From: a virus
DNA: 41,649 nt
Direction: 5' to 3' (one strand)
IMG/VR virus record: IMGVR_UViG_3300029452_000003
The notes under the pieces were generated by a model, which worked only from the letters and a program-made list of their open reading frames with translations, ran no database searches and was not told the DNA's origin. This document shows positions 1,973 to 36,500 of the stretch, one piece after another. Every line of letters starts with the position of its first letter. The stretch's first letter is position 1. The position numbers were made by a program, and so were the translations under genes.

Positions 1973-4891
1973 ATGATTACAGTAGAACAAATATTAAACG
2001 CAACAAACGGAGGTTTGGACATTATATTGTCCATATATCCGCAGGCGCGTGACTGCGTACACCAGAAGAACAAGCACTTCTCTATACGCAACGAGCGTAC
2101 ACCGTCGGCCTCTTTACGACAATTCAACTCGAAAAGGTATGGCGCGATTTGGCAGGTCACGGACTTTGGCGGCGAAGGTCGTGGCGAAAATGCCATAGAC
2201 ATCTTTATGCGCGAGAATGGCTATGACCGCTCACGCTTCAATGAGGCGATACTGAAGCTGGCGGCACAGTTCGACATACGCGATGAACTTGACCGTTCCG
2301 TGAACCGTCCGGAGATTCGCCAGCGGGAGGCTCGTGCCGACGAAAAAGACGGTACACGCTCCTTCGAACTCAACGAGAAATTTACAGACGCAGAACTTAA
2401 GGTTCTTGGCCCGAAGGTTACCCAAACTGATGTTGATGCGTTGCACTGGCACTCCGTCAAATGGATTACCAACGTTAAGGACCGCAAGGTTACTGTCAAG
2501 TATTCTACCGAGCACTATCCTATCTTCATGCGCGAGTGTGTTATCAAAGAGGCTGTGGGCGACCAGCCGGAAGAGAAATTCTATAAGGTTTATGAGCCTT
2601 ACAACTGCGATAAAGGCTTCCGTTTCTCGTACACGCCTGCAGGTGCCAAGCCGCGCTTCTACATTAACGGGCTTGCGGAGCTCAAGAAGGCATACCGTGA
2701 CTTCAATGCCAAGGAAGAGAAAGAGTGGAACGCAGCACACGAGGACGGCAAACCGTACAAAGAGCAGAAGTTGCCCGAAGCGGTAATCTGCTCTGGTGAA
2801 CGCGACTCGCTTTGCTGCAAGTCCATGGGCTACTTTCCTCTGTGGTTCAATTCCGAGACCTATCAGCTCTCAGTCGACGAGTATAAGGAGATAATGAAGT
2901 ACGTCGAGATACTCTACAATATACCCGATATCGACGAGACGGGTCGTCGCAAAGGCAGGGAGCTTGCACTGCGCTTTATCGACATACATACCGTATGGCT
3001 CCCAGAGAAACTGCAAACATACAAGGACAACCGAGGCAAACCTCGCAAGGATCTGCGCGACTGGCTCGAGATACACAGTGAGCGTAAGGATTTCCGTAAT
3101 CTGCTAAGAGTGGCCATGCCGGCAAAGTTCTGGGTGCAATACTACACCAAAGAAGGCAAGATGAAAACGGAGGTGGATACAGCCTGCCTTTATAATTTTC
3201 TACAACTTAACGGCTTCTATGCTCTCCATGATGACAACTCTGCAGTGACGCAGTTTATACGCGTAGAGGGTAACACTGTGATGCGCGTCAATGTAAAAGA
3301 GATACGTGAGTTCATCCGGCGATGGGTTGTTGATAGATTCGAGGACCGTAACATCCTCAACCTGGTGCTCAATACTACTAAGCTATCTCCTGCAGCTCTT
3401 GAGTCGTTGCAAGAGATTGACCTGGACTTCACCAATTACACTCCAGACTCGCAGTTCTTCTTCTTTGCTAACAAGACTGTCGAGGTGTGCGTGCCTACTG
3501 TATCTTGTCCGAATGGGTTGAAGGAGTATGATCCAGGTGCAGATAGCTTACACAACTTCGTTTGGGAAGAGAGCGTCATTCCTCATAGATACAAGGCTTT
3601 GCCTGATATGTTCCGCATTACGCGTAAAGAGGGTGACAATGGTCAAGCGTTGTTGGATATAGATATCCTTAACGTGAAGAGCAACTTCTTTGGCTATCTT
3701 ATCAATACCTCACGACTATACTGGCGCGAGGAAACGGAGGTTCCCTTCGGCGATGACCGCGAGGCTTCAGCGGCATACATCAAGGCTCATCCGTTCTGCA
3801 TTGATGGTGAGGGGCTGCAACCTTACGAGATAGCAGAACAAAAACAGAATCTCATCAATAAGATATTTACATTCGGCTACATGCTACATCGATACAAAGA
3901 TTATGCGCGCTGTTGGGCACCGATGGCCATGGACAACAAGATAGGCGAAGAAGATGAATGTAACGGACGCTCCGGCAAATCTTTCTTCTTCAAAACGCTC
4001 TCGTTCTTGGTTAATACGGTTAAGTTGTCCGGACGCAATCCGAAGCTTATGGACAATCCTCACGTTTTTGAGATGGTCAGCCAGTTTACAGGTATCCTGC
4101 TGATTGACGATTGCGACCGATATCTCAATCTTGGCCCGTTCTACGATAACATTACGAGTGATATGACGGTCAATCCGAAGAATAACAAAATATTCACTGT
4201 AAAGTTCGAGGATGCGCCTAAGCTTGCTTTTACCACGAACTATGTACCGCAGAACTTCGATCCGTCTACTGAAGCTCGCTCTCTGTATATGGTATTCTCC
4301 GACTGGTACCATCAGAAAACCGAGGATAATGATTATCGAGAGACAAGAGATATTCGTGCTGACTTCGGCAAGACTCTGTATGACTACGAGTATAGCGAGG
4401 ACGAGTGGAACGCCGACATTAACTTTTGGCTTCAGTGTTGTAGGTTTTACCTCTCACTTAAAGACTCTGGCTTAAAGCTGCAGCCACCTATGGCCAACAT
4501 GGTGAAGCGTCATCTTAAGGCTTCCATGGGCGCCAACTTCGAGGACTGGGCAGAAGGCTACTTCTCACCCGACGGCGAACATCTTGACGAATTCCTGCCA
4601 CGTGACGATGTCTTCAACGAGTATCAGCGCTTTGCTAACGTAAACCGAATAACAATGCAGGCATTCACCAGGAAACTCAAGTCGTTTTGCATACTATGTC
4701 CTTGGATTGACTGCATGAATCCGCCTGACCTCTGCAATACGGGCGGTCGAATACAGCGATCAGTGATGGTGGCACCAGACAAGCGCAAAACCAAGGACAT
4801 GATTTATATACGCTCTATCCCATTAGACACCAAAACGGACGCAACCGAACAAGACCTTTGTTTCTCAACAGAAGACGAGAAACCTTTCTAA
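1973..4891 (+). CDS. DNA primase-helicase (Toprim domain + P-loop NTPase, VirE/D5-like)
   Basis: Toprim signature (VICSGERDS ... NIPDIDETGR). Walker A NGRSGKSFF and Walker B GILLIDDCD in the C-terminal half. Start taken at MITVEQIL (1973); the ORF is open from 1919. Confidence 0.8.
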   Translation: MITVEQILNATNGGLDIILSIYPQARDCVHQKNKHFSIRNERTPSASLRQFNSKRYGAIWQVTDFGGEGRGENAIDIFMRENGYDRSRFNEAILKLAAQFDIRDELDRSVNRPEIRQREARADEKDGTRSFELNEKFTDAELKVLGPKVTQTDVDALHWHSVKWITNVKDRKVTVKYSTEHYPIFMRECVIKEAVGDQPEEKFYKVYEPYNCDKGFRFSYTPAGAKPRFYINGLAELKKAYRDFNAKEEKEWNAAHEDGKPYKEQKLPEAVICSGERDSLCCKSMGYFPLWFNSETYQLSVDEYKEIMKYVEILYNIPDIDETGRRKGRELALRFIDIHTVWLPEKLQTYKDNRGKPRKDLRDWLEIHSERKDFRNLLRVAMPAKFWVQYYTKEGKMKTEVDTACLYNFLQLNGFYALHDDNSAVTQFIRVEGNTVMRVNVKEIREFIRRWVVDRFEDRNILNLVLNTTKLSPAALESLQEIDLDFTNYTPDSQFFFFANKTVEVCVPTVSCPNGLKEYDPGADSLHNFVWEESVIPHRYKALPDMFRITRKEGDNGQALLDIDILNVKSNFFGYLINTSRLYWREETEVPFGDDREASAAYIKAHPFCIDGEGLQPYEIAEQKQNLINKIFTFGYMLHRYKDYARCWAPMAMDNKIGEEDECNGRSGKSFFFKTLSFLVNTVKLSGRNPKLMDNPHVFEMVSQFTGILLIDDCDRYLNLGPFYDNITSDMTVNPKNNKIFTVKFEDAPKLAFTTNYVPQNFDPSTEARSLYMVFSDWYHQKTEDNDYRETRDIRADFGKTLYDYEYSEDEWNADINFWLQCCRFYLSLKDSGLKLQPPMANMVKRHLKASMGANFEDWAEGYFSPDGEHLDEFLPRDDVFNEYQRFANVNRITMQAFTRKLKSFCILCPWIDCMNPPDLCNTGGRIQRSVMVAPDKRKTKDMIYIRSIPLDTKTDATEQDLCFSTEDEKPF

Positions 4892-10279: not shown

Positions 10280-10805
10280 CGTTCCCACTCAGTACCATCT
10301 CGGTACTGGGCTACACACGCTCGGCTTGCTCAGATGGATTCTGAAGCAGACCGGGCGTGCCGACGTTTACGTATCTACTTTCTCAACCTCCGACGCTTTC
10401 CTCTGCGGTTTCCTACGTCTGCGCCGGCGCAAGCTGATAGCCAACGCCACACTCGTAGCCGACCTTAAGGCTGCACGCAAGACGGTGCAGCTCTATCGGC
10501 TTATGCAGAGCTGCTTCGACCATGTGCATCTGGCGCAGAACCACTCAAAGATAATGCTTGTCAAGAACGAGAACTATCAGGTTGCTGTTATTAGTTCTCA
10601 GAACCAGACCTATGGCGACCGCGCCGAGTGTACAATGATCACTACAGACCTCAAGGCTTACTACTCGTTGCTTGCCGGTCTGAGAGGCATCGTCGACAAA
10701 TCACTTGAGCTAAATGGATTATTCCAACGACTTACTGACAAAGATAGAAAACTATGCGCGGGAGATGATGACCCCGACGGAGATATCCGCCCTTTTGGGT
10801 ATTGA
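10245..10805 (+). CDS. Possible PLD-like (HKD-motif) protein
   Basis: NHSKIMLVKNENYQVAVISSQN resembles the HxK(x)4D(x)nGSxN PLD/Nuc motif, but with Lys in place of Asp and altered spacing. Only one motif copy is present. Confidence 0.35.
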   Translation: MKQAYPFRPLSDVPTQYHLGTGLHTLGLLRWILKQTGRADVYVSTFSTSDAFLCGFLRLRRRKLIANATLVADLKAARKTVQLYRLMQSCFDHVHLAQNHSKIMLVKNENYQVAVISSQNQTYGDRAECTMITTDLKAYYSLLAGLRGIVDKSLELNGLFQRLTDKDRKLCAGDDDPDGDIRPFGY

Positions 10806-10992
10806 CGAGCGTGAGCTGTGCGACGACATAGCCACTGTTGGCTGTCCTGCACGCGCGGCTTATGTTCGTGGCGCATCAGCCACGGCGCTTGAGCTTCGCC
10901 GCACTCTTCACGATACGGCACTTGCTGGCTCTCCCTATTCTATTCAGGAATGTCAGCGTCTGCTTGCTGCCGCTCTTTCTGCTGTCACTTAG
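10714..10992 (+). CDS. Small HTH-like protein (possible DNA-recognition or terminase small-subunit partner)
   Basis: MTPTEISALLGIDERELCDDI looks like an HTH. Overlaps the upstream ORF by 92 nt; alternative start at 10765. Confidence 0.4.
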   Translation: MDYSNDLLTKIENYAREMMTPTEISALLGIDERELCDDIATVGCPARAAYVRGASATALELRRTLHDTALAGSPYSIQECQRLLAAALSAVT

Positions 10993-11026
10993 CATTCTCA
11001 ACATTCAACACTCTACATTATTATAT

Positions 11027-11620
11027 ATGCTTCCAGTTAACCTCGATGAATATTCGCGCTATGTCACCCTCGACGATGCTGAACTGCGTCAGCTCCGTGT
11101 CGCCGAGGGTGTATTGCTGCGTCTTCATCGCATACGCGGCATGTATGCCTATTGGTTGCAGTTCCCGTCAAAGGTTGACAACGACCTGGTGCAGTACGAT
11201 ATGGCTATGTTCAAGGTATCGCGCTCTCTTGCTTACGAGGATCTGCATCTGGTCAAGGTGCTACTCGGCAATCTTCAGCAGACTACGAAGGAGTTCATGC
11301 GCTGGAAGATTAACAAGTCGCTCGAGCAGGACGTCGCTGCAGCACGCCGCGCCGGCGACTTCCGGTCGGTGGCTGCGCTCTCTAAGGTGCTCGTGGCTAA
11401 CAACCGCACCGATAAGGACGACGAACCCGACCTCGAATTCGACAAGATCGTGCCTCAGAACTTCGAGCCGACAGACGACCCTACGGTTCTCGGCATCGAG
11501 CGCATCCCTGACCTGCGTGGCAAGATACGTGCTCTCTACAAGCGCTACTCCAACACTATGATACAAGATGCTGATTTCGAGGAGATAAAAGAAGAGATAA
11601 AACCCGACGAAGATGAGTGA
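11027..11620 (+). CDS. Putative terminase small subunit (by position)
   Basis: 197-aa ORF from MLPVNLDEY. It overlaps the TerL start by 8 nt. The upstream extension of the ORF to 10838 looks like non-coding read-through. Confidence 0.4.
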   Translation: MLPVNLDEYSRYVTLDDAELRQLRVAEGVLLRLHRIRGMYAYWLQFPSKVDNDLVQYDMAMFKVSRSLAYEDLHLVKVLLGNLQQTTKEFMRWKINKSLEQDVAAARRAGDFRSVAALSKVLVANNRTDKDDEPDLEFDKIVPQNFEPTDDPTVLGIERIPDLRGKIRALYKRYSNTMIQDADFEEIKEEIKPDEDE

Positions 11621-13244
11621 TTGCATTGAACAACCAAACCTTCAGTATTTCAACGACGCGCAGTATTACGCACTCGCCATGAACACACGCGACGAGGTAA
11701 TCGTTGCCGGACGTGGTGTGGGCAAGGGTGCTATTCAGGCGCGCCGTCTGCAGTCGTGCTTTCAGGGTATGCCCGGCTCCATGGGTGGCTTCGTAGCTCC
11801 GTCCGTCAAGCGTTGCCTGACCAATATCCTGCCCTCCATGCTCATCCACCTCGAGCGATGGGGCTTCAAGCGCGACCTACACTATGTCGTGGGTCGGCGA
11901 CCGTGGAAGAAGCTCCACTGGAAATCGCCTATCTTCACGCCGGCGAACTGGGAGAACACCATCAGTTTCTACAACGGCTCCGTCTGCAATGTCATCTCGC
12001 AGGACCGCTCGGGCACGTCCAACTCGATGTCGCTCGACTATCTCATCATCGACGAGGCGAAGTTCATCGACTTCGAGCAGCTCAAAGACGAGACCTTTCA
12101 AGCCAACCGAGGCAACGAGATGTACTTCCGCCATTTCCCTCTGCATCATGGCATGACCATCACTTCCGATATGCCTATCACCAAGAAGGGCTCCTGGTTC
12201 CTCAACTACAAGGATAAGCAAGACCCAGAACTGGTGGAGGTCATCGAGGGGCTGGTCTACCAGATATGGAGACTGAAGCAGAAGCTGCTGAAGACTCCCG
12301 ACAAGCACGAGCAGATCCAGCGACGCATAGACGAGTACAACAAGCAGCTCAACTTCTTTCGCTCGCAGTGTTTGCTCTACCGCGAATATTCATCAATCGA
12401 GAACCTCGCACTCCTGGGCGAGGAGTTTATACGCCGTGCCAAGCGCGACCTTCCACCGCTCACCTTCGCCACGTCTATCATGTGCCAACGTGTGAGCATA
12501 TCGGCTGACGGCTTCTACGGTGGCATGAGCGAGACCGCCAACCTATACACGGCACCCAACGAGAGCGTGCTCAACCTGCACAACCTCGCCAACGCCGAGG
12601 GTGGTGCGCTACCTAACGATTGCCGCATGGATGCCGACCGCAACGACAAGCTGCCGTTGCTGATAGCCTTCGACACTAACAACCTCATCAACTGGCTCGT
12701 CGTCGGTCAGGTGCAAGGCTCGAAGCTGCGCGTGCTCAAATCGTTCTTCGTCAAATACGAGCGCAAGATTCCTGAGTTGCTCGACGACTTCAATACGTAC
12801 TACCACTATCATCGCCGTCGTCAGATCATCTTCTACTACGACTCTACCATGGTGGGCACCAACTGGGGCTTGCACTACAACGACCCTCATAAAGAGGTGG
12901 TGCGCACGCTGCGCTCGATGGGCTGGGCGGTGCGCGAGGCTTATCTCGGCAACCCGATGAACCACGTACAGAAGAACGCTCTCATCAATAATATGTTTCG
13001 CGGGCGTGCCCGTCTGCAGGTGCTCGTCAACCGCGACAACAACCCCGACATGCTCATCTCCATAACCTCTGCCGGCGTGTACAACGGCAAGAAGGATAAG
13101 CGTGGAGAGAAGCTCGCAGAGACCGAGGAGGATAAGCTGGAGGCTCGTACCGACGGTTCCGATGCCTTTGACGTGCTCTGCATAGGCGCGGAGACCAAGC
13201 CGGTGTTCCAGGGCACCGGCGGCACAACCAACACATACGGCTAA
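11613..13244 (+). CDS. terL: Terminase large subunit
   Basis: Walker A-like VAGRGVGKGA and Walker B DYLIIDEAKF. 543 aa with a C-terminal nuclease-sized domain. Typical size and position. Confidence 0.85.
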   Translation: MSDCIEQPNLQYFNDAQYYALAMNTRDEVIVAGRGVGKGAIQARRLQSCFQGMPGSMGGFVAPSVKRCLTNILPSMLIHLERWGFKRDLHYVVGRRPWKKLHWKSPIFTPANWENTISFYNGSVCNVISQDRSGTSNSMSLDYLIIDEAKFIDFEQLKDETFQANRGNEMYFRHFPLHHGMTITSDMPITKKGSWFLNYKDKQDPELVEVIEGLVYQIWRLKQKLLKTPDKHEQIQRRIDEYNKQLNFFRSQCLLYREYSSIENLALLGEEFIRRAKRDLPPLTFATSIMCQRVSISADGFYGGMSETANLYTAPNESVLNLHNLANAEGGALPNDCRMDADRNDKLPLLIAFDTNNLINWLVVGQVQGSKLRVLKSFFVKYERKIPELLDDFNTYYHYHRRRQIIFYYDSTMVGTNWGLHYNDPHKEVVRTLRSMGWAVREAYLGNPMNHVQKNALINNMFRGRARLQVLVNRDNNPDMLISITSAGVYNGKKDKRGEKLAETEEDKLEARTDGSDAFDVLCIGAETKPVFQGTGGTTNTYG

Positions 13245-13282
13245 AATCTCATTTCTCATTTATTTTTTGTTTATACTTTACA

Positions 13283-13319
13283 CCGCTGGCGCGAGATGCG
13301 TCGGCGGCTTTATTTTTTT
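13283..13319 (+). terminator. Rho-independent terminator after terL
   Basis: ccgctggcgc (13283-13292) pairs with gcgtcggcgg (13298-13307), including two G-U pairs. Followed by ctttattttttt. Confidence 0.6.
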
Positions 13320-13407
13320 ATTATTACTACAAAAAAGTGTAGTAAATATTTGTATAATACGAAAATTTGTAGTACACTTTGTAGTGTCTTAAAAAAAGTA
13401 ATACAAT

Positions 13408-13545
13408 ATGAATAAAGAATTAACAGAAGAAGAGGCAGAACTGATAGAAGCTATCAGAGCCCACAAAAGAAGTTACCCGAATGGTCATCCTCAGTTGTTA
13501 TGGTACGCACAAGAGCTGTTCGATGAGATGACATCAGTTAAGTAA
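13408..13545 (+). CDS. Tiny ORF A1a (45 aa), paralog of 16992-17123
   Basis: MNKELTEEEAELIEAIRAHKRSYPNGHPQLLWYAQELFDEMTSVK. Shares TE.E.ELIEAIR....YPNG with the 43-aa ORF at 16992. Below the 60-aa cut-off of the ORF track. Confidence 0.55.
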   Translation: MNKELTEEEAELIEAIRAHKRSYPNGHPQLLWYAQELFDEMTSVK

Positions 13546-13588
13546 TTCTAACAAGGCAGCCCGAAAGGGCTGCCCTAACTAACACAAT

Positions 13589-13837
13589 ATGGAAAAGAAC
13601 AAACAAGCAAAGGACAATACTGTTAAGCAACGCTTGCAGGACATTCTGCTGAGTGTATCATGGCGTGATATCGCCAATACTTATTTCGACCGCTCGGCTT
13701 CATGGTTGTATCATAAACTCGATGGAATCGATGGCAATGGTGGTGTCGGTGGGTTCACAGACAAGGAGAAGGAGCAGCTTCGTGGTGCTCTTGTCGACCT
13801 CAGCGACCGCTTACGCCGTGCTGCTGACAATATTTAG
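13589..13837 (+). CDS. DUF5053-like small protein A1b (82 aa), paralog of 17169-17414
   Basis: Shares SWLYHK and L(R/K)GALVD..(R)LR..AD with the 81-aa ORF at 17169. My recollection is that this matches the Bacteroidales DUF5053 family; that is unverified. Confidence 0.6.
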   Translation: MEKNKQAKDNTVKQRLQDILLSVSWRDIANTYFDRSASWLYHKLDGIDGNGGVGGFTDKEKEQLRGALVDLSDRLRRAADNI

Positions 13838-13891
13838 GCAGATGTTGTATTACATTTAAGACACAAGTCGTCCGTGCCTACGGATGCACTC

Positions 13892-13923
13892 AGCCTCGGC
13901 ACTTCGGTGTCGGGGCTTTTTTG
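13892..13923 (+). terminator. Terminator (UUCG tetraloop hairpin + T tract), family 1 copy 1
   Basis: agcctcggcac / ttcg / gtgtcggggct followed by tttttt. Same element at 17435-17466, with a compensatory C-G to A-T change. Confidence 0.75.
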
Positions 13924-14625
13924 TTGGCAATTGTCAACCTCGCACCGTCTCGTCTTACCGCTGATGGGCGCAAAATCGACAAGCCAAAATCACATACTCG
14001 TCACAACCGCCAGCATATTCCGCTAAAGGCGAGGAAGGCAATTGCCAACTCGGCGCAGGGCGGTGTAGTGCTGCATAGACAGAAAGTCTTGCACCCTGCA
14101 AAATCGTAATGCTTAACTCGTTGATTTTTAAGCATTACGATTTTGCAGCTATGGAAAAGGTACGCGAAAACGCGCTCATTTCTCTATTCCGGGCTTCTTT
14201 TTATTGCGGAAAAGAAGCAAAAACGCTTGCGAAAACAAGTTTTCGAGTGGTATTCTCCGGTAGAGAATGCTATTTTTTACATCTTGCGCTATTCCGTTCG
14301 AGAGCATTTTAGAAGATTATTGTACATCGGGTAGAGTGTCGTTTTTACTTCGCGAATTTACGGCGGACGGCTGCCACCCAAGCACCGATGCACTAAAGTG
14401 ACAGAAATTTTACAGCAGCCTTCCGACTTTTCTTCCTACGGCTTCCTTCAAAAACTCGGTTTTCCATAAAATTTCAATCCCTTTTGCTTGTCCTCTCGCC
14501 TTACTTCCACCGTCTTTTTGCGGCGTAAAAAGCGAAATTCGACCCGACGTGAATAAAAAAAACTCTCAAACGGGCTACAGATGAGATGTGTAAAAAGCTC
14601 TCTTCTCGCCTCGGAGAATAATTTT
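13923..14625 (+). ncRNA. Candidate structured non-coding RNA or long structured 5' leader of the PRTase gene
   Basis: About 0.7 kb without a credible ORF on either strand in an otherwise densely coding genome. Helices: 13923-13933/14039-14049 (11 bp), 14096-14116/14128-14148 (21 bp perfect), 14193-14201/14210-14218 (9 bp), 14364-14374/14415-14425 (10 of 11). Confidence 0.3.
14096..14148. repeat. Perfect 21-bp inverted repeat with 11-nt spacer
   Basis: ctgcaaaatcgtaatgcttaa / ctcgttgattt / ttaagcattacgattttgcag. No T tract follows, so it is not a classical terminator. Confidence 0.9.
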
Positions 14626-14639
14626 AAGGAGGACAAAAA

Positions 14640-15173
14640 ATGAAAACAGCCAGTTTCTACAGCTATATGCCGAAGCGTTACACCACCGACGACGTGCAGA
14701 CCGAGCGCATCAGACGCTTTATTTATTCTTTCAAGCGCGGCGACCGCCATGCGGTAGACTTCGCCGTCAACATCGTAAGCGAGTGCCTTAATAAATGGTA
14801 CGGCGCAAGCAATCAAGACTATGTGCTCGTGTGTATTCCTGCAGCTACAAGTGCCAAGTATAACCGCCGCTTTAAGCGTTTCGCCGAGGAGGTAAGCAAG
14901 CGCACCGGCATACAGAACGGCACGGCACACGTGAATATCTTCGGCATGCGCGAAGCGAAGCACAACAACGCCGCGCACATCGTCAGCGAGTCGTATGGCT
15001 ACCACGTGAGCACCGACCCCGACTTCTTCGCAGGCAAGAACGTGATACTCTTCGACGACCTCATTACTACAGGAGCCACGGCGGAGGAGTTCGCCGCCGA
15101 ACTCGCAGCGGTAGACGCTAACGTCATCGGCGGCTTGTTTCTCGCACGCACCAAACTCATGAATAACCATTAA
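14640..15173 (+). CDS. ComF-like type I phosphoribosyltransferase (PRTase) domain protein, no zinc finger
   Basis: PRPP-binding loop VILFDDLITTGATAEEF. Upstream YVLVCIPAATSAKYNRRFKRF resembles the ComF core. A canonical SD (aaggagg, 14626-14632) lies 7 nt before the ATG. Confidence 0.8.
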   Translation: MKTASFYSYMPKRYTTDDVQTERIRRFIYSFKRGDRHAVDFAVNIVSECLNKWYGASNQDYVLVCIPAATSAKYNRRFKRFAEEVSKRTGIQNGTAHVNIFGMREAKHNNAAHIVSESYGYHVSTDPDFFAGKNVILFDDLITTGATAEEFAAELAAVDANVIGGLFLARTKLMNNH

Positions 15174-15184
15174 AGCTAAACAAT

Positions 15185-15865
15185 ATGAACAATTTTTCAG
15201 AACTCGTTCGCGAAGAACGCCCCGACTACAAAGTATATAATAGCGGTTTCGACTCGCTCAACAGCGTTGAACTCATAAGCCTAATAATAGGGCAAGGCAA
15301 AAGCACGCACGCAGCCATGCAGCAGGCTCGCCAGATAGTGAACATTTGCGGCGGCAGTCTTCGCGACATCGCCACCCGACGCGCCGAAGAACTACAAGTA
15401 GTGCAGGGCGTAGACCCCAAGAAAGCAATGACACTACAAGCAGCGTTCGAACTCGCTAAGCGCATCGAGCGCGAAGCAGCAGCCGACCGCCCGAGCTTCA
15501 GAACCGCCGAAGACGTTTGGCGATACTTCCGCCCGATAGTGGGCACGGCAGACCATGAGGAAGCGCACGTGCTGCTCATGAACAATAATTTCAAACTGAT
15601 TAAAGCCGTGAAACTATCAAGCGGCGGACTCACCGAGACAGCCGTAGACGTGCGCATCATATTGCGCGAAGCTCTCGTCAACAACGCCACCACGCTCACC
15701 CTGATACACAACCACCCAAGCGGCAACCCGTGCCCGAGCCGCGACGACGACCGCATCACGGCGACGCTAAAGCAGGCGTGCTCTACAATGCGGCTCTATC
15801 TGATAGACCACGTCGTCGTAACGGATAGCACATACTACAGCTATTCGGAGGAGGGCAAGCTATAG
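15185..15865 (+). CDS. radC: RadC-family JAB/MPN+ domain protein (full length with N-terminal HhH-like region)
   Basis: JAMM motif LIHNHPSGNPCPSRDD. The overall 226-aa layout is typical of RadC/UPF0758. Confidence 0.9.
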   Translation: MNNFSELVREERPDYKVYNSGFDSLNSVELISLIIGQGKSTHAAMQQARQIVNICGGSLRDIATRRAEELQVVQGVDPKKAMTLQAAFELAKRIEREAAADRPSFRTAEDVWRYFRPIVGTADHEEAHVLLMNNNFKLIKAVKLSSGGLTETAVDVRIILREALVNNATTLTLIHNHPSGNPCPSRDDDRITATLKQACSTMRLYLIDHVVVTDSTYYSYSEEGKL

Positions 15866-15874
15866 ACCGCATCG

Positions 15875-16042
15875 CACCGACCTCACGCATCGAGGTCGGT
15901 GTGGTCGCAACCATTTTGTTGAGCTCAACGAAATGGTTGCTTCTCTTCCCACCCACCGCCCTTCCGCCCGCCGCAAAAACGCCTGCAGCATTTTTGCGGC
16001 GGGTCCCAAAGAGGTAAAAAGCCACCATTTAGAGGCTTTTTT
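15875..16042 (+). terminator. Stack of four consecutive strong hairpins after radC (only the last has a T tract)
   Basis: 15875-15901 (10 bp). 15907-15940 (17 bp around gagctc). 15967-15979/15991-16003 (13 bp). 16016-16042 (aaaaagcc/ggcttttt followed by T tract). Confidence 0.5.
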
Positions 16043-16084
16043 CATTTTTCTAACAAAACAAGGTGATTATATCAAAAAAAATCG

Positions 16085-16097
16085 CTTACTTTGCAAA
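16085..16097 (+). promoter_or_regulatory. Conserved promoter-like box CTTACTTTGCAAA (copy 1)
   Basis: Identical 13-mer at 18359-18371. Both are preceded by an A-run and both sit upstream of a small-ORF + membrane-protein pair. Contains a TTTG -7-like core. Confidence 0.4.
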
Positions 16098-16147
16098 CAG
16101 CAAGAAAGAAAATGACATCTAAAACAATAAAACAAGGAGGCAAAATT

Positions 16148-16381
16148 ATGTGCATTATCAACGACATCACCCATTTTGTAAAAAATGGTTTTACTGTTTT
16201 GCGCCATGCCTCTTCCGGCAAATACGAAGAGAACTCACTTGAAATTGAGGCACTGAAGCGTGAGATGTTCTGTAAACCATCAAATCGTCACACAGATATG
16301 GAGAACCTCAGAAAAGATCGTGACAATATTGCCCGTGACGTACGCACGGCGTTTAATAATTTAGTTTTGAACAATGGCTAA
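16148..16381 (+). CDS. Small protein B1a (77 aa), unknown function
   Basis: The ATG at 16148 is preceded by aaggagg (16134-16140). Alternative start at 16112. Overlaps the next gene by 8 nt. Confidence 0.5.
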   Translation: MCIINDITHFVKNGFTVLRHASSGKYEENSLEIEALKREMFCKPSNRHTDMENLRKDRDNIARDVRTAFNNLVLNNG

Positions 16382-16790
16382 ACAATCCTATTCAATTAAA
16401 GGCACAAACATCTCTAACGGAGATGCTGTTGGCAATCAGATTGAGCAGACAGTTTCTGTCGACGACAATATACTGCCTGCTCCTCAAGAATTGGCAGAGT
16501 ATAAAAATATTGACCCAAAAATTGTTGACTTCCTTATAAAGTCGTCAGAGCGTGAGCAACTTCACCGACATAAACAAGATGAAAAGAAGCTGAAGATACT
16601 CAACTACAACGAGCACAAGGTCGGCAATATGAATTGGTGGGGTATGTTCTTTGCCTTTTTTGCTATTGTTGCGACAATGGGGTTGGCAGCGTATGCTCTA
16701 TATCTTGATCGAGCGTGGTTTGCTGGTATCTTCGGCCTGGCAGGCATCGCAAGCATAGCGTCTGTGTTTATAAATAACAAAAGGGTGTAA
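16374..16790 (+). CDS. DUF2335-like membrane protein B1b (138 aa, two C-terminal TM helices)
   Basis: LPAPQELAEYKNIDPKIVDFLIKSSEREQLHRHKQDE followed by two hydrophobic helices. Paralog of 18625-19056. The DUF2335 assignment is from memory. Confidence 0.6.
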   Translation: MAKQSYSIKGTNISNGDAVGNQIEQTVSVDDNILPAPQELAEYKNIDPKIVDFLIKSSEREQLHRHKQDEKKLKILNYNEHKVGNMNWWGMFFAFFAIVATMGLAAYALYLDRAWFAGIFGLAGIASIASVFINNKRV

Positions 16791-16991: not shown

Positions 16992-17123
16992 ATGAGGTAC
17001 ACAGAAAAAGAAAAAGAACTGATTGAGGCTATCAGAAATTACAGAAAAGCCTACCCGAACGGAGCACGAGAACTTGAATTCTACATTATGGATTTAGTCT
17101 ACGAGCTTATGGAGAATGAATAA
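16992..17123 (+). CDS. Tiny ORF A2a (43 aa), paralog of 13408-13545
   Basis: MRYTEKEKELIEAIRNYRKAYPNGARELEFYIMDLVYELMENE. Followed by a GC hairpin at 17130-17151, as in copy 1. Confidence 0.55.
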   Translation: MRYTEKEKELIEAIRNYRKAYPNGARELEFYIMDLVYELMENE

Positions 17124-17168
17124 CCAAAAGCCCTCCCTCTCGGGGGAGGGCATAAAAAAGATATAAAT

Positions 17169-17414
17169 ATGGAATACGCAATCGTAAATCAGCAGACAAC
17201 AGTGCGTCAGGTACTCAATGACGTGTACGAGGACATTAATTGGGCTTATCTCGCACAGAACTATTTTGGAAAATCCCGCAGCTGGCTTTATCATAAGTTC
17301 AGCGGACGCAACAACGGCAAGCCCGACGACTTCAGCGACATCGATCGCGAGCGTCTCAAGGGTGCGCTTGTGGATATAGCAAACCGTCTGAGAATGACGG
17401 CTGACAAGTTGTAA
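17169..17414 (+). CDS. DUF5053-like small protein A2b (81 aa)
   Basis: Paralog of 13589-13837 (SWLYHK; LKGALVDIANRLRMTADKL). Confidence 0.6.
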   Translation: MEYAIVNQQTTVRQVLNDVYEDINWAYLAQNYFGKSRSWLYHKFSGRNNGKPDDFSDIDRERLKGALVDIANRLRMTADKL

Positions 17415-18624: not shown

Positions 18625-19056
18625 GTGGTAAGACCGGATGTAGAGCAGGTGCTTGCGTCCATCGATCCTGATAAGCGCAGTGTCATTGTAAGTGCAATGG
18701 TTGAAATGCGCCAGACTTTTAGCGGTCCATTGCCTCGCCCTGCGGATTTCAAAGCGTATAAGGAAGTGTTGCCAAATGCTCCGGAACGTATTCTACTTAT
18801 GGCAGAGAAACAGCAACAGCATCGTATCGACTCAGAAGAACGGATTATTAAAGCAGATATTCGCGAGAGTATTTTTGGTCAGGTATTTGCTGTGCTGCTC
18901 GTAGTTCTATTCCTCGCTGCAGCGGTCTACTTAGGTATTAATGGACATGACTGGCTTGCAGGTATTGTTGCCACTCTTTCTGCTACGATAAGTGCTATTT
19001 TTTACTTGAAGTCAACACCAAGTAATAAGGATTTGGACAACATAGATAAGAAATAA
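18625..19056 (+). CDS. DUF2335-like membrane protein B2b (143 aa, GTG start, two C-terminal TM helices)
   Basis: LPRPADFKAYKEVLPNAPERILLMAEKQQQHRIDSEE followed by two hydrophobic helices. Paralog of 16374-16790. Confidence 0.55.
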   Translation: MVRPDVEQVLASIDPDKRSVIVSAMVEMRQTFSGPLPRPADFKAYKEVLPNAPERILLMAEKQQQHRIDSEERIIKADIRESIFGQVFAVLLVVLFLAAAVYLGINGHDWLAGIVATLSATISAIFYLKSTPSNKDLDNIDKK

Positions 19057-19192: not shown

Positions 19193-19200
19193 TACCTTTG
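19193..19200 (+). promoter_or_regulatory. Bacteroidota-type -7 promoter box (TACCTTTG)
   Basis: Exact TAnnTTTG match. A transcript from it would start just before the first palindrome at 19218. Confidence 0.45.
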
Positions 19201-19216
19201 CCATCGCTACGATATC

Positions 19217-19391
19217 CATGCGGAGCACTCCGCATTATGTGGACTCCGCATGAACAAAGGGCGAGACGATATGTTCAAGCCCAACCAACTTTTTCTAAAC
19301 GTTGTGGGCTTATTTTTTTGCCCATAATATGCCGCATCGGTACGAGGGGAGCAAGCCCTTTGTTCATGCGGAGCACTCCGCATTATGTGGA
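19217..19391 (+). promoter_or_regulatory. Leader with duplicated 27-nt element, two 18-bp palindromes, a 19-bp long-range helix and an internal terminator-like hairpin
   Basis: catgcggagcactccgcattatgtgga at 19217-19243 and 19365-19391. Palindrome atgcggag-ca-ctccgcat at 19218-19235 and 19366-19383. 19244-19262 is the exact reverse complement of 19355-19373. Hairpin 19277-19311 plus T tract. Confidence 0.5.
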
Positions 19392-25658: not shown

Positions 25659-26153
25659 ATGAAAGACTTATTTCCGGCTCTCGACTACTTCACTCAACTC
25701 GCGAAGAGCAACCGCCTCGCCACCGAGCACGACTTTCACCCGTGCCTCTGCTCTGGTCCCGACTCGATACAAGGTGTTATGGACTCGTTCCGCAAGCACA
25801 AAAACTTCATCATGGTCGACGACACCACATCGCAGCAGACCTTCAGCAACGGCGTGGGCTATTTCCGACGCGATGTCTACACCGTCTTCATCGTAGCTCA
25901 CTACCGCTACGACGACATGGCGGAGCGCGAGCAGAAGTTGAACATCTGCCGCCAGTTGTTCCGACAGTTTCATTCCAGACTGCTGCACGATCGCGACGGA
26001 CTCGGCGACGAGCGTCTGACATACCTGCAGCTGAACAACATCTACTCTACCGAGCTCGGTCGCTACGCCATGAATGGCGTGACGGGACTCTACTTCATGG
26101 TGCAGAACGAACAACCTATAGACATTAGCTATGAGCAGTCAGAATGGACTTAA
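25659..26153 (+). CDS. Hypothetical protein (164 aa), head-tail completion candidate by position
   Basis: Preferred over the alternative-frame ORF at 25652-26128, which is Arg/His-rich with low complexity. Confidence 0.5.
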   Translation: MKDLFPALDYFTQLAKSNRLATEHDFHPCLCSGPDSIQGVMDSFRKHKNFIMVDDTTSQQTFSNGVGYFRRDVYTVFIVAHYRYDDMAEREQKLNICRQLFRQFHSRLLHDRDGLGDERLTYLQLNNIYSTELGRYAMNGVTGLYFMVQNEQPIDISYEQSEWT

Positions 26154-26610
26154 ACCGAACATGACCGATGCCGAGCACCAGAAGTGGCTTGAGGGTTGGA
26201 GCGAGTTTATGGTTAAGATGTGGCGCGAGCGTATGATGCAGTTCGCGCCACCAGTTTACGATACCGGTGCTTTGTCGCGCTCCGTGCAGGGTGTCATACA
26301 TCCTGGCCCGGTGACATCGATAGAGCACCGTTTTTTAGAATATGGCATCTACGTGGCACGTGGTGTCGGCAACGGCTACCGGCATAACAACGGCGGCGAC
26401 TTGACATTCCTGAAGGACTGGAAGACAAACCCACGCCACCGGCAGAAACGCGACTGGTTCTCAAAGAAGTATATGTACTCGCTACACCGTCTCAACGAGT
26501 TCGAGGCTGCTTACTACGGCACTACATACAATGGTCTCGTGTCATCATTCCTACGTCAGCTCTTCACTGGTGGGTCAAGCACAATCGACCGCGCGGTAGC
26601 GCAGCTGTAG
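26131..26610 (+). CDS. Hypothetical protein (159 aa), head-tail completion candidate by position
   Basis: 23-nt overlap with the previous gene. Confidence 0.5.
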   Translation: MSSQNGLKPNMTDAEHQKWLEGWSEFMVKMWRERMMQFAPPVYDTGALSRSVQGVIHPGPVTSIEHRFLEYGIYVARGVGNGYRHNNGGDLTFLKDWKTNPRHRQKRDWFSKKYMYSLHRLNEFEAAYYGTTYNGLVSSFLRQLFTGGSSTIDRAVAQL

Positions 26611-32138: not shown

Positions 32139-32522
32139 ATGGATATGGTTTTACAGATACTTTCGCTGCTTGTTAGCGGTGGCATCGTGGGGCAGCTGCT
32201 CTACTATAACTCGCGGAAGCGCAAAGAGGCAGCTGCAGCACAAAAGGAGGAGGACGCTAACGCCCTCGCCTACGCCCAGGAGTGGCGCAACCTCTACACC
32301 CACGAACACGAGGAGCACATGGAGGAGCGCACAAGACTCAACAACAAAATCGACTCACTCTATGACGACATTGGCAAGCAGCGTGATCTCATCCGAGAGC
32401 TGCGTGCGGAGAAGCACGACTTGCTCCTTCGCATGCACGAGCTGCAGTGGAACGAGTGTACCGTGAACGGATGTATGAAGCGCAAACCGCCAAGAGACTA
32501 CGGCAAGGCGGAAACCGACTAA
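32139..32522 (+). CDS. Membrane-anchored coiled-coil protein (holin/spanin-like)
   Basis: N-terminal TM helix (VLQILSLLVSGGIVGQLLYY) followed by a charged coiled coil. taaggagg (32126-32133) lies 5 nt before the ATG at 32139; the ORF track starts at GTG 32133. Confidence 0.5.
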   Translation: MDMVLQILSLLVSGGIVGQLLYYNSRKRKEAAAAQKEEDANALAYAQEWRNLYTHEHEEHMEERTRLNNKIDSLYDDIGKQRDLIRELRAEKHDLLLRMHELQWNECTVNGCMKRKPPRDYGKAETD

Positions 32523-32540
32523 TAACCCTTTTATAACATT

Positions 32541-33011
32541 ATGAATACATTAGATAAATTGTTAGAAATATTGTGCGGTGCGCTGTTAGGTTTATTATCC
32601 GGCGCATTAGGTTTGTTAGCCTGCGTATTGCTGACACTATTTTGCGGTTGCTCTACACCGCAGCCTGTGGTTGTAGAGCGAGTGGTCGTTAAGACTGATA
32701 CACTCTATAAGGCGAGGACGAGTGCTGACACGTTTCGGCTGCACGACTCGGTGTATGTTGAACACTACACTCGTGGCGACACAGTGTATAGGCTAAAGAG
32801 CGTGTGGCGATGGCGTGACCGCATAAGTGTGAAGACCGACACTATATATAAAGCAATGCTCCAGACTGACACAACACGTCTTCCCATACCAGTGGAGCGC
32901 AAGCTATCGACGTGGGAGCGCACGCAGATGCGCGTCGGGCAGTTAACTATCGGCGCGGTGGTGCTTATTGTTCTGTCGCTGTTGTTGTGGCTGATACATC
33001 GCCGACGATGA
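32541..33011 (+). CDS. Membrane protein with lipobox-like N-terminus and C-terminal TM helix
   Basis: LLACVLLTLFCGCSTPQ is signal/lipobox-like. The C-terminus is LTIGAVVLIVLSLLLWLI. Confidence 0.5.
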   Translation: MNTLDKLLEILCGALLGLLSGALGLLACVLLTLFCGCSTPQPVVVERVVVKTDTLYKARTSADTFRLHDSVYVEHYTRGDTVYRLKSVWRWRDRISVKTDTIYKAMLQTDTTRLPIPVERKLSTWERTQMRVGQLTIGAVVLIVLSLLLWLIHRRR

Positions 33012-33547: not shown

Positions 33548-36500
33548 ATGGCAACAACTCAAACTTTCGAGACCATCGTCAGTCTTAATGCGCAGCAAGC
33601 GAAGAATGAGATGGCAACACTAAAGAAAGCCCTCGATGACCTAAAGCAGAAGAAAGCCGAGGCACTCAAAGACCCTGGTACGTCGGTTAAAGACATTAAC
33701 AAGTTCGACAAGCAAATTAAGGCTGCCGAGGCAAGCCTTAAATCTTACAGCAATAGTGTTGCAAAAACAATAGACACGGTCAACAATATATCCACAGCAT
33801 CGTTAGGGGATATTGAAAAAGCAGCCCGTGAGGTGCGACGTGCGATGAAACAAGTGACAAATCCCGATGATTACAATGCGCTCAATGTTATTCTACAGCA
33901 CTGTAAGGATCGTATGGATTTTCTTAAAGATTCTACCGTGCATTCGCTGAAAGAGATGCAGGAACTAAATCATGCTACCGTCAATCTGCAACGAGTTCTT
34001 GGCGATATTAATGGCGCGTCGCTTAACGATCTTACTGCAGCTGCATCTACTCTGCAGAAAGAATTAAACGACATGTCGCCTAATACAGATGCCTTCGACA
34101 AAGCTTCAGAAAGTCTGCAAAAAATAAACACACGCATACAGCAGATACATTCGAGCCAAAAGGAGGCAAATCTGTCCATTGACAAATACGATAAAGAGAT
34201 AGCTGCTGCGAGACGCTCAGCCTCTGAACTCGCACGTGAAAATAAACTTATAGATGCTACGCTTAAAAATATCAGCGGTTCCTCGATGCGCGAACTTCAG
34301 TACTCGCTGAAAATAGTAAATGAACGACTCGAAGGCACTAAGCAGGGAACAAATGCTTTCGATGAGCTAAACAACAAGGCGAAACAACTAAAAAGACAGA
34401 TAACTGCCATCAACAACGAACAAACAACTTCTGTAGGTCTGTGGAAAGGCGCTGTCAATGGTTTGAATAAAAATTGGGGCGCAATCACTCAGACACTTTC
34501 TGCATTTACCGGCTTGTCTACAACAGTTCGTCAATGTGTAGATGCGTTTACAGACATGGACCAAGAGATGAACAATGTACGCAAGTACACCGGTCAGTCG
34601 ATGGAGGAAGTTGAGGAGATGAATGAAAACTTTAAGAAAGTTAACACAAGAACTGCGCGTGGCGAGCTGAACAAACTTGCCCAAGATGCGGGTAGGCTTG
34701 GCATCACCAACAGAAAAATGATCGAGGAGTTTGTTGATGTCGGCGACAAAATAAAGGTGGCTCTTGGTGATGACCTTGGTGACGGAGCTATCGGCAAGGT
34801 CGGTAAGCTCGCAATGGCTTTTGGCGAGGATGATCGCCTCGGCTTGCGTGGCGCAATGCTCGCAACGGGTTCTGCTATTAATGAGCTTGCACAGAACTCT
34901 TCAGCATCGGCTGGTTACCTCGTTGAGTTCACCGCTCGTGTCGCAGGTGTCGGCAAGCAGGTCGGCTTGACTCAGGCGCAAATCATGGGTTATGCTGCTG
35001 TCATGGACGAGAACATGCAGAAAGACGAAATGGCTTCTACCGCATTCTCTCAGCTGCTGACCAAAATGTCAACAGACACTAAGACTTTTGCTAAAATGGC
35101 AGGAGTAGACTTGAAGACCTTCTCTGACCTCGTTAAGAACGATATGAATAAGGCTGTCATTACACTTATGGATAATTTGAAATCTAAGGGCGGTTTCGAC
35201 CAACTTGGCAAAATGTTTGGCGATATGGGACTTGATGGTGCACGCGCCGTCGCTGTTCTCACAACAATGGCAGACAAGGTTGACGACATTCGTGAGCGCC
35301 AAGAGATAGCAACAGAAGCCTATCGTGAGGCAAAATCTGTTATCGAGGAATTTGACGTGCAGAATAGCACCTTACAAGCCGATGTTGATAAGGCAAAAAA
35401 TCGGTTCCGTGAGTTAACCATAGAACTCGGCGAGAAACTTTTGCCTGTAGTGAAATACACCATCAGTGCTGGCAGTCTACTCGTTAAGTCACTATCTGCA
35501 ATAACTTCATTTACTACGAAATACTGGAAGGTTCTTGTTGTCGTTACTTCTGGTATCGCGGCGTATACTTTAGCTGTAAAAGCTGCAGAGATAGCAGAGA
35601 TGGCACACAATGCTGTTAAGCTTAAAGGTTTAGCCATAGACAAAATGAAGAGGATGTACTCATCACTTATAGTTTCTGCACAAACGGCGTACGAAATTGC
35701 AGTAAAGGCTTGTACCCGCCAAATAAGCCTTGCAACTGCCGCACAAAAGATGTGGAATGAGGTTATACTGGCTAATCCTTGGGCAGCAGCCATTGTTACT
35801 ATGGTGGCAGTGACAGCTGCGCTTATCGCATTCACATCTAAAGCAGATAAAGCTACGATAGCTCAACGCGAACTTAACGAGGCAAATGCGGAAGCTGCTA
35901 CCCAATGCCGTTCGGAGATTGCAGAGCTTTCTACGCTCGTTGACTTGGTTAGAGACAAGGCTGCGTCCGATGATGCCAGGACAGAAGCTTTAAGAAAACT
36001 TCAGGAGAAATACCCCGGATATCTTGACAATCTTACACTTGAAAATATAAACTCAGACAAGGCTCGCGAGGCGGTCGACAATCTTACAGACTCCATCTTA
36101 GCACAAGCCAAAGCTCGTGTATATCTGTCAAAGATCGAGGAGTTGGAACGTAAAAAGCAAGATATTAACGAAGAGTATCTTGAAAGTTTCTGGGGGCGGC
36201 TTAAACAGTTCTGGCGGGCAGATTTCCAGGTAGCTGCTAACACACTCGCGCATTTTAGCGAAAAAATGTACAAATCCATAGACTATGGTGTTACCCACGC
36301 AATCAACTATGGTGATTTAAAAGGCTTTAAAGATGGTTGGACTGACCAAACGTACATTGAGCGTAAAGGCTATACGATGAACACTGCTGTAAAAATGAAT
36401 CGAAACCAGGCTGATGATATAGCAGAACTACAGGAAAAACAAAATGAATGGCTAAAGCGATATCAAGATGCGCAAAAAAAAGAGACAGAAAATTCACTTA

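Follow-up and report, generated by a model that had tools for sequence, protein, structure and literature searches.

The locus and its genes

The window analysed here, i.e. the whole 41,649-nucleotide stretch of IMG/VR record IMGVR_UViG_3300029452_000003, represents a temperate tailed phage of about 41.6 kb, in which profile searches identified a head protease, tail proteins, a tape-measure protein and a tyrosine integrase. Relatives of this phage are found in genomes of Leyella stercorea and Prevotella and in human-gut metagenomes. The present study concerns positions 13921-14639, a non-coding yet strongly selected cis element of about 720 nucleotides (nt) which is tied, in abundant gut Prevotella phages, to the gene pair directly downstream, encoding a phosphoribosyltransferase (PRTase) and a RadC-family protein. 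This element is previously undescribed. Every gene near it is located on the plus strand, and the locus is organised as follows (coordinates refer to the window):

11613-13244, plus strand: gene for a 543-residue protein with a Walker-A-like GRGVGKG motif, putative large terminase, without profile confirmation
between the putative terminase gene and the DUF5053 gene, plus strand: open reading frame (ORF) of 45 codons
13589-13837, plus strand: DUF5053 gene
13892-13917, plus strand: intrinsic terminator of the DUF5053 gene, 11-bp stem (7 GC) followed by a T tract; left edge of the conserved element
13921-14279, no strand assigned: module A, a conserved non-coding block with local hairpins
14280-14583, minus strand: module B, an imperfect rod-like hairpin of about 300 nt with closing helix CATCT/AGATG and apex near 14427-14455
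14603-14618, plus strand: small hairpin TTCTC-GCCTCG-GAGAA, located after the rod and before the start codon, 5/5 pairs invariant in 21 sequences
14626-14632, plus strand: Shine-Dalgarno sequence AAGGAGG, 7 nt before the ATG at 14640
14640-15173, plus strand: PRTase gene, 177 residues, ComF/ShosT-like
15185-15865, plus strand: gene for a RadC-family JAB protein, 226 residues, a full-length family member
15907-15940, plus strand: terminator hairpin ending the PRTase-RadC unit

The PRTase matches Pfam Pribosyltran (E 3e-5) and, among the PADLOC profiles, ShosT (E 3e-12) and PsyrT (E 3e-8); its match to NCBIfam ComF (E 6e-7) is under the family cutoff, and a sequence search of the PDB with this protein gave no match. 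The RadC protein is recognised by Pfam RadC (E 9e-36) together with UPF0758_N, by NCBIfam NF000642 with 181 bits, which is over the cutoff, and by similarity to PDB entry 2qlc (E 5e-16). PRTase and RadC domains are typical of the early-deployed proteins of phages and conjugative elements (PMC5512222).

A conserved non-coding block accompanies the PRTase and RadC genes

ORFs within 13921-14639 are short and overlap each other, and a preliminary description of this DNA had found none of them credible. That small protein-coding genes are nonetheless hidden here, for which only the short ORFs 13921-14109, 14109-14312 and 14143-14334 on the plus strand and 14176-14307 on the minus strand could be put forward, is very improbable. 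In an alignment of 14 diverged relatives the variable columns of 13920-14669 are without codon periodicity (chi-square p 0.48-0.94), whereas in the PRTase gene of the same alignment they concentrate in one codon phase (p down to 4e-6). Moreover, indels of 1 nt and 5 nt separate close relatives inside these ORFs, which are not kept in other clades. Variable columns are fewer in the non-coding stretch than in the PRTase gene, and after correction for GC content no part of the entire 41.6-kb window is more structured than the 300-nt windows over 13851-14350 (z -4.8).

The Rfam/Infernal comparison proposed in the preliminary description, run as an Rfam scan, matched no family: the whole window is without a match to Rfam 15 at the gathering score on both strands, and a scan of the region at E<=10 yielded only chance microRNA-like matches, confined to its hairpin. 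Scans for tRNA and tmRNA found none, and blastn detected no match to the region among 50,697 phage records. Tandem short repeats of the ToxI type are lacking upstream of the PRTase gene, where only scattered two-copy direct repeats of 10-22 nt could be identified.

Homologues of the PRTase were gathered from IMG/VR, GTDB genomes and metagenomes, plus an exact-protein look-up, resulting in 112 loci of Prevotella/Leyella phages with readable upstream sequence (76 distinct, in 21 clusters at 96% identity). The non-coding element accompanies PRTase-RadC at all 112 loci, and the order of the locus is constant: putative terminase gene, sometimes inserted morons, terminator, 400-840 nt of non-coding DNA, PRTase gene, radC. 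Two scans of IMG/VR with invariant blocks of the element found no copy away from PRTase-RadC, all other matches being chance ones inside coding regions. Since the locus order is constant and the element is found nowhere else, the block and the two genes form one co-evolving unit, in line with the earlier supposition that the region is functionally tied to the pair. The element is single-copy, constant in position and co-diverged with the genes, and the unit can be followed to PRTase identities as low as 44-50%. For some motifs of the element, conservation exceeds that of the accompanying proteins, and the region is not junk.

The left edge of the conserved block, which begins TTGTTGGCAATTG, always lies just behind a hairpin and T tract, with a terminator stem that varies in sequence among relatives. 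At the right, the block ends with GAGAATAA (at about 14621). The strong Shine-Dalgarno sequence that had been noted before the PRTase gene is present in the window; the segment from the small hairpin to the ATG varies by clade, AAGGAGG is not conserved, and other clades have unrelated A/T-rich spacers.

Several loci deviate in their genes. The interval between terminase and element is an insertion hot spot, occupied by DUF5053, by a HicB-like gene or by two genes of about 240 codons, depending on the locus. A cargo swap considered for locus L078 ('35% PRTase') was rejected, as this is an internally deleted copy of the PRTase and not other cargo; the deletion leaves 120 residues (3001-3363), and the element itself is intact there. 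In L136 (4001-4540), the called PRTase gene begins within the non-coding element.

Module A and its hairpins

Module A exists in two versions. It is 77-98% identical among type-1 loci, and the type-2 version is barely alignable to it but has the same layout, consisting of the terminator, a CATATT...GGCGC(A/G)G segment, a long perfect hairpin and small hairpins. One locus (L010) is a recombinant of both types, with its breakpoint near 14273. RNAalifold support for module A is equal on both strands. The following features, none of which is assigned to a strand, were identified in the window:

13926-13935: palindrome GGCAATTGTC, copy 1, with the second copy 111 bp away
14037-14046: palindrome GGCAATTGCC, copy 2
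14096-14116/14128-14148: perfect 21-bp hairpin with an 11-nt loop
14193-14201/14210-14218: 9-bp hairpin GCTTCTTTT/AAAAGAAGC, invariant in 15/15 type-1 sequences
14230-14245: small hairpin CGAAAA-CAAG-TTTTCG, with AAA/TTT changed to GGG/CCC in L039-type loci (3-4 compensatory pairs)
14251-14269: small hairpin TATTCTC-CGGTA-GAGAATG, with one compensatory pair (T-A to C-G)

All helices listed in the preliminary description were found in their places. Conservation and covariation of helices could be observed in homologous loci upstream of related PRTase genes, where many compensatory substitutions occur, above the level of shuffled and slid controls. One example in module A is the 21-bp hairpin, in whose stem 8-9 pairs have changed on both sides in type-1 loci with pairing kept; conservation is seen in its outer stem GCAAAATC/GATTTTGC and, within the loop, in the core TTGATT. 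In type-2 loci a different perfect 21-bp hairpin (CCCCGAAAATCGGCTGTTTTG...) occupies the same place, and the two have only AAAATCG/CGATTTT in common, while clade L137 has a 10-14-bp hairpin there. In one subgroup of loci only (L041, L042, L003 and L046), a further perfect TAGCTTTG occurs on the minus strand about 428-437 nt before the PRTase ATG, within the loop of the long type-2 hairpin. The 9-bp hairpin is present as described before and never varies.

A long-range 11-bp helix (13923-13933 with 14039-14049) had also been listed. The complementarity exists, and even extends to 21 nt at 86% (13923-13943/14029-14049), but it consists of the two palindrome copies and shows no covariation. The GGCAATTG(C/T)C palindromes are invariant in type-1 loci, do not covary and are absent from type-2 loci, for which reason they are read as possible protein sites; the pair may be protein-binding sites rather than a helix. 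Elsewhere in the window, an inverted repeat TGGCAATCAAGCGTTGCCA at 1922-1949 overlaps a good promoter (TTTG-N20-TATCTTTG); the half-sites of this repeat are similar to the GGCAATTG(C/T)C palindromes of module A (13926 and 14037). This likeness may point to a shared DNA-binding protein.

Module B is a covarying rod

Module B is present at all loci. Its closing helix reads CATCT/AGATG or CGTCT/AGACG (12 versus 7 sequences). Pair statistics for the consensus fold of the rod were derived from the 21 cluster representatives, with shuffled and slid-partner controls:

plus strand: 67 pairs, 18 changed on both sides; shuffles 7.6 ± 1.5, slid partners at most 4
minus strand: 81 pairs, 22 changed on both sides; shuffles 10.8 ± 1.7, slid partners at most 8

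On the minus strand 97.6% of the cells are paired. When folded as DNA, the rod of the window reaches -55.6 kcal/mol on the minus strand (z -3.7) and -45.4 kcal/mol on the plus strand (z -2.2). A 10/11 match between 14364-14374 (CGGACGGCTGC) and 14415-14425 (GCAGCCTTCCG), described earlier as a further helix, does exist, but lies outside the consensus fold and is nearly invariant. Taken together, a single-stranded fold of the element is under selection.

Minus-strand preference of the rod

Helices can be read on either strand and G-U pairs cannot; therefore the pattern of G-U pairs discriminates between the strands. The RNAalifold consensus amounts to -69 kcal/mol with 81 pairs for the minus strand, and to -47 kcal/mol with 67 pairs for the plus strand. 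Positions that alternate between Watson-Crick and G-U pairs beside covarying pairs number about ten on the minus strand and two on the plus strand. Minus-only wobble columns in alignment A4 include 97/403 (UA 7, UG 7, CG 6), 131/365, 168/324, 201/281, 212/270 and 213/269, and a plus-strand reading turns about ten of the minus-strand G-U positions into A-C mismatches. Within type-1 sequences alone, G-U versus A-C in the shared helices is 8 versus 10. The minimum free energy (MFE) is lower on the minus strand in 15/15 representatives.

More distant clades show the same preference. Upon addition of a third clade (50% PRTase identity), 66 pairs remain on the minus strand, 24 of them covarying, whereas the plus strand falls to 32 pairs, of which 9 covary. 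This third clade (L137), folded as DNA, has a z of -2.40 on the minus strand and of +1.15 on the plus strand, the latter no better than shuffles. In clade L135 (44% PRTase identity) the spacer is without sequence similarity to the window, yet forms a rod of about 300 nt, with RNA z values of -8.3 (plus) and -10.6 (minus) and an MFE of -122 versus -148 kcal/mol. The conserved fold of the rod is thus that of the minus strand, i.e. the template strand of the PRTase gene.

These results bear on the suggestion of the preliminary description that the PRTase-RadC mRNA begins far upstream and carries the region as a structured leader, or that the region is a plus-sense non-coding RNA (ncRNA). A leader of this kind could serve, for instance, RNase III processing, translational control, or sensing of a ligand or protein. 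A plus-strand RNA would have the orientation of all neighbouring genes, and the invariant small hairpin and the Shine-Dalgarno sequence precede the ATG as expected of a leader; no promoter lies between the terminator and the ATG, and in the main clade the plus consensus still has 67 pairs with 18 compensatory changes. We nevertheless regard it as unlikely. The plus fold is always the weaker one and carries the A-C mismatches mentioned above, it shrinks to 32 pairs with the third clade and is lost among shuffles in L137, and no clade has a plus-strand promoter motif. Furthermore, the conserved intrinsic terminator at 13892-13917 is directly upstream, which argues against read-through from far upstream.

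A promoter-like motif of Bacteroidetes type on the minus strand of the rod

The preliminary description had found no TAnnTTTG box between the upstream terminator and the PRTase gene, and indeed there is none on either strand of 10746-16141. The minus-strand 3' arm of the rod, however, carries a conserved motif of Bacteroidetes type, CTTGG-N17/18-TAA(A/C)TT(C/T)G-N6-AAAAA, with the following parts:

14378-14382, minus strand: -33-like CTTGG, invariant in all alignable clades
14360 to 14353, minus strand: -7-like box TAAATTCG, compared with the Bacteroidetes consensus TAnnTTTG
14514-14519, minus strand: side of the internal loop that faces the -7-like box, 6-7 nt, A/C-rich
14525-14535, plus strand: putative initiation region, with a start predicted near 14526-14529 and hence a predicted 5' untranslated region (UTR) of about 114 nt

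All 24 representatives have the minus-strand box at the same place, at a distance of 253-301 nt from the ATG. Perfect agreement with the consensus is seen in L068 (TAACTTTG), L137 (TAAATTTG) and L135 (TATCTTTG; 253 nt from the ATG); the same estimate of the start would give a 5' UTR of about 113 nt in L135. No representative has a plus-strand box within about 700 nt of the ATG. The -33-like CTTGG is in duplex (helix 10), with 5/6 pairs that never vary, and the spacer between CTTGG and the box is paired and covarying. In contrast, the six inner bases of the -7-like box are unpaired in the consensus fold as well as in single-sequence folds. The loop opposite the box is variable between clades and never complementary to it, and the flanking helices covary. 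At 6 nt past the box lies an A-run duplex (14339-14348 with 14525-14535), and the order box-N6-AAAAA is kept in all phage clades and in the elements of plasmid pMMCAT described below.

In double-stranded DNA (dsDNA) the box points away from PRTase-RadC, and could simply be a leftward promoter. The region might then be ordinary regulatory dsDNA or a decayed mobile repeat, with operator palindromes (GGCAATTGCC twice), a divergent minus-strand promoter at 14353-14382 for a short leftward transcript, and inverted repeats like those of miniature inverted-repeat transposable elements, and no selected single-stranded fold. The invariant, non-covarying GGCAATTG(C/T)C palindromes fit this explanation, as they resemble the operator-like repeat at the real promoter 1922-1940, and pMMCAT has a small minus-strand ORF downstream of the equivalent box. 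It is improbable all the same, since helices between arms 100-300 nt apart stay paired through 18-22 double substitutions and the rod is kept in clades without sequence similarity, for which dsDNA sites would have no need. The phages have no conserved minus-strand ORF, and a single-copy element in a fixed place, co-diverged with its genes to 44% protein identity, is not what would be expected of a mobile repeat.

A large structured minus-strand ncRNA, antisense to the PRTase leader, would explain the strand preference equally well. The ShosT-like PRTase might be the partner of such an RNA, which would be antitoxin-like or protein-binding and have the box as an internal-loop motif. The rod has 13-24 G-U pairs on the minus strand versus 4-9 on the plus strand in several clades, as in RNA helices; an internal loop conserved on one side is typical of protein-binding RNA motifs; and the element strictly co-evolves with PRTase-RadC and never occurs alone. 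We consider this explanation doubtful. Scans of dsDNA for promoters (sigma-70-type and TAnnTTTG) and intrinsic terminators found no signal on either strand suitable for an RNA that spans the rod: there is no conserved minus-strand promoter to its right, where the spacer with the Shine-Dalgarno sequence and ATG is the least conserved part, and no minus-strand terminator-like site to its left. The loop motif would have to equal the exact host promoter consensus in three independent clades by coincidence. Moreover, the box shows variation at position 4, which is degenerate in the consensus, and at position 7 (C or T); the conserved N6-AAAAA comes after the box, and Rfam offers no match on either strand.

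A single-stranded-DNA promoter as proposed function

We rank first, and tentatively propose from these sequence comparisons, that the element is a promoter for PRTase-RadC that works in single-stranded DNA (ssDNA), similar to the Frpo/ssi elements of plasmids. The functional form would be the folded minus strand, in which the rod 14280-14583 would rebuild a Bacteroidetes-type promoter from a duplex -33-like CTTGG, a paired spacer of 17-18 nt, the box TAAATTCG in a pre-opened bubble of 6 nt, and the A-run duplex. Given the location of the motif on the 3' arm and its apex-to-base direction, a polymerase starting here would copy the 5' arm and then exit into the PRTase and RadC genes. In dsDNA the operon would be silent, because a terminator stands directly upstream and a coding-strand promoter is lacking; PRTase and RadC would be fired only while this stretch of the phage is single-stranded. 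Single-stranded DNA could arise if a packaging end close to the putative terminase gene is resected 5' to 3', which would leave exactly the minus strand exposed; replication intermediates are an alternative source. We infer that the folded molecule is DNA and not RNA, that the motif is a promoter in use, and that this region of the phage does become single-stranded; whether DNA or RNA folds is the main uncertainty.

Repeated elements on a Bacteroides plasmid

A tblastn search of plasmids found homologues of the PRTase (32-33% identity) only on large plasmids of Bacteroides, Parabacteroides and Phocaeicola, and on one Segatella plasmid. One of these, the conjugative plasmid pMMCAT of Bacteroides (NZ_CP072253.1), encodes a PRTase homologue (33% identity) and, next to it downstream, a SLOG (DprA-like) protein. 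The two make up a ShosTA-like pair amid genes for HU, an orphan N6 methylase, an LPD28 protein, a JAB protein, SSB and PcfJ/K. Upstream of the PRTase homologue are about 810 nt without a plus-strand gene, of which the proximal 394 nt recur with 97% identity in the spacer before the LPD28 gene and with 75% identity in a portion of a third spacer. These repeated elements (62.25-62.68 kb and 65.1-65.7 kb), with a rod of about 300-390 nt, are undescribed in the searchable literature. The copies are located as follows in the pMMCAT locus (L193):

32252-32681: upstream of the LPD28 gene
35322-35714: upstream of the PRTase-SLOG pair
25985-26332: upstream of a hypothetical gene

The two near-identical copies carry a minus-strand TAAATTTG-N6-AAAAAC 285-297 nt from the ATG, at 285 nt in the copy before the PRTase homologue, and no plus-strand box, whereas a neighbouring toxin-antitoxin operon has ordinary plus-strand boxes just before its start. 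The plasmid elements share with the phage rod the minus box, the lack of a plus box and a CTTTTT(T)ACG motif on the other arm; they differ in that the partner is SLOG and not RadC, and in being multi-copy. As DNA, the rod has a z of -4.2 on the minus strand and of -3.9 on the plus strand. Near-identical copies before two genes recall Frpo1 and Frpo2 of plasmid F, and as an analogue pMMCAT is supportive of an ssDNA promoter, though not decisive. A region of 880 nt upstream of the JAB/RadC-like gene of pMMCAT is also empty.

Weighing the proposal

A number of observations weigh against an ssDNA promoter. Its host is a tailed, integrase-bearing dsDNA phage without a documented single-stranded stage. 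The -7-like box has 7/8 consensus positions in most of the main clade, and the distance between the -33-like and -7-like boxes is 17-18 nt, compared with 19-20 nt (TTG-N19/20-TAnnTTTG) in the real promoters of this genome. Of the minus-strand rod pairs 12-20% are G-T, which is weak in DNA and more typical of RNA, and with DNA parameters z is only -2.4 to -3.7 in two clades. Half of the element, namely module A, is not accounted for by this function and has no strand preference. With regard to pMMCAT, BLAST found no significant similarity between the phage element and the plasmid elements, which are alike in motifs and architecture. Finally, if the origin of transfer (oriT) of pMMCAT were beside its annotated MobC/relaxase genes, the polarity of transfer would be wrong for this function; the pMMCAT paper makes no mention of oriT.

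A full-text literature search found no paper joining 'ssDNA promoter' with Bacteroid*, and an ssDNA-only promoter is undescribed for a tailed phage or for Bacteroidota in the searchable literature. With slightly more reserve, we suggest that a Prevotella temperate phage may use a promoter that exists only in folded ssDNA as a sensor of its own DNA turning single-stranded, through resection, replication or attack, triggering PRTase and RadC, and that the same class of promoter, with Bacteroidota -33/-7 boxes, may serve several genes of pMMCAT, a conjugative plasmid widespread in the gut. If this is correct, ssDNA promoters would be a general device of Bacteroidota mobile elements and not a peculiarity of enterobacterial plasmids, and the Frpo principle would reach beyond proteobacterial plasmids to another phylum with a different promoter grammar, and also to a tailed phage. 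Either single-strand sensing or a defined single-stranded stage would be implied in the life cycle of the phage, and the timing of expression would provide a handle on two enigmatic 'competence' proteins, a ComFC-like PRTase and RadC, on mobile elements. The signature, i.e. a rod hairpin with a box on the 'wrong' strand in a bubble and no coding-strand box, would be usable to mine Bacteroidota phages, plasmids, and integrative and conjugative elements for early or anti-defence genes. If the element instead encodes a minus-strand RNA of about 700 nt, it would represent a new family of large structured RNAs in abundant human-gut phages.

Other features of the phage genome

Pfam and PHROGs recognise little in the window beyond the protease, tail, integrase and a sigma-like protein; in the replication module, these searches identified no HUH or rolling-circle protein. 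The sigma-like ORF (900-1463) has a sigma-70 region 4 or LuxR-type helix-turn-helix (HTH) domain and may be a phage-encoded sigma-like regulator; it adjoins a Cro/CI-type HTH gene on the minus strand (168-602). Two duplications were observed, i.e. a cassette of a 43-45-codon ORF followed by a DUF5053 gene (13408-13837 and 16992-17414), and a gene for a DUF2335 membrane protein (16374-16790 and 18625-19056). The three successive hairpins 3' of radC (15907-15940, 15967-16003 and 16008-16049) belong to the most structured regions of the window, as do the 300-nt windows over 19193-19383. The latter region contains a perfect 19-bp inverted repeat (19244-19262/19355-19373, 92 nt apart), flanked by copies of the palindrome ATGCGGAGCACTCCGCAT at 19218 and 19366, with a promoter-like TACCTTTG at 19193 just before the repeat; an invertible switch is one possibility here, a further structured element a second.

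Comparison with known systems

Several kinds of system invite comparison by their proteins or by their nucleic acids. ShosTA is a toxin-antitoxin defence system consisting of a PRTase toxin and a DprA-like antitoxin (PMC12961424). The phage PRTase matches the ShosT profile, and in both cases the partner comes from the world of competence and ssDNA, DprA-like there and RadC here. The phage partner is of the RadC/JAB and not the DprA/SLOG family, and for ShosTA no large upstream structured element has been reported.

In type III-A retrons an msr-msd ncRNA occurs together with PRTase effectors (PMC12746101). The phage locus is similar in combining a structured non-coding element with a PRTase-like effector, and a selected structure could likewise sit in an opposite-sense DNA copy. 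A retron was rejected as an explanation, since none of the window ORFs of at least 300 residues contains a reverse transcriptase domain, as the preliminary description had held, and none was found beside the PRTase gene in related loci; retron-like flanking repeat architecture was not seen either.

Hairpins in single-stranded or extruded DNA are known as entry sites for RNA polymerases. The minus-strand origins of filamentous phages and the single-strand origins (sso) of rolling-circle plasmids are ssDNA hairpins recognised by RNA polymerase, and the virion RNA polymerase of phage N4 uses hairpin promoters. These elements make primers, or are hairpins of 5-7 bp read by a dedicated polymerase. 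None of them is known to stand before an operon for a ComF-like PRTase and RadC or to use promoter boxes of the Bacteroidota.

In the Frpo/ssi elements, the transferred (template) strand forms large stem-loops in which promoter boxes are rebuilt, and early genes are driven from these until synthesis of the complementary strand (PMC9849209, PMC11541004, PMC12672017). These elements measure 50-350 nt and more and are silent as dsDNA; examples are Frpo1 and Frpo2 of F, ssi1-3 of ColIb-P9 and classes 1-3 of pESBL (PMC9849209, PMC11541004, PMC12672017). The phage element differs from these in its occurrence in a tailed temperate phage and not in the leading region of a plasmid, in its Bacteroidota host with -33/-7 boxes (TAnnTTTG) instead of -35/-10 boxes, and in its size of about 720 nt with an extra hairpin module. 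Because the promoter type of the host differs, sequence homology to Frpo/ssi is not expected. The likeness is one of architecture: as in Frpo/ssi, a non-coding stem-loop lies just upstream of the genes (rod 14280-14583, ATG at 14640), and the fold is that of the template strand. The candidate promoter boxes, with a -7-like box that is perfect in three clades and 7/8 elsewhere and a spacing 1-2 nt shorter than in the real promoters of this genome, are in the stem and would be aimed at the downstream genes.

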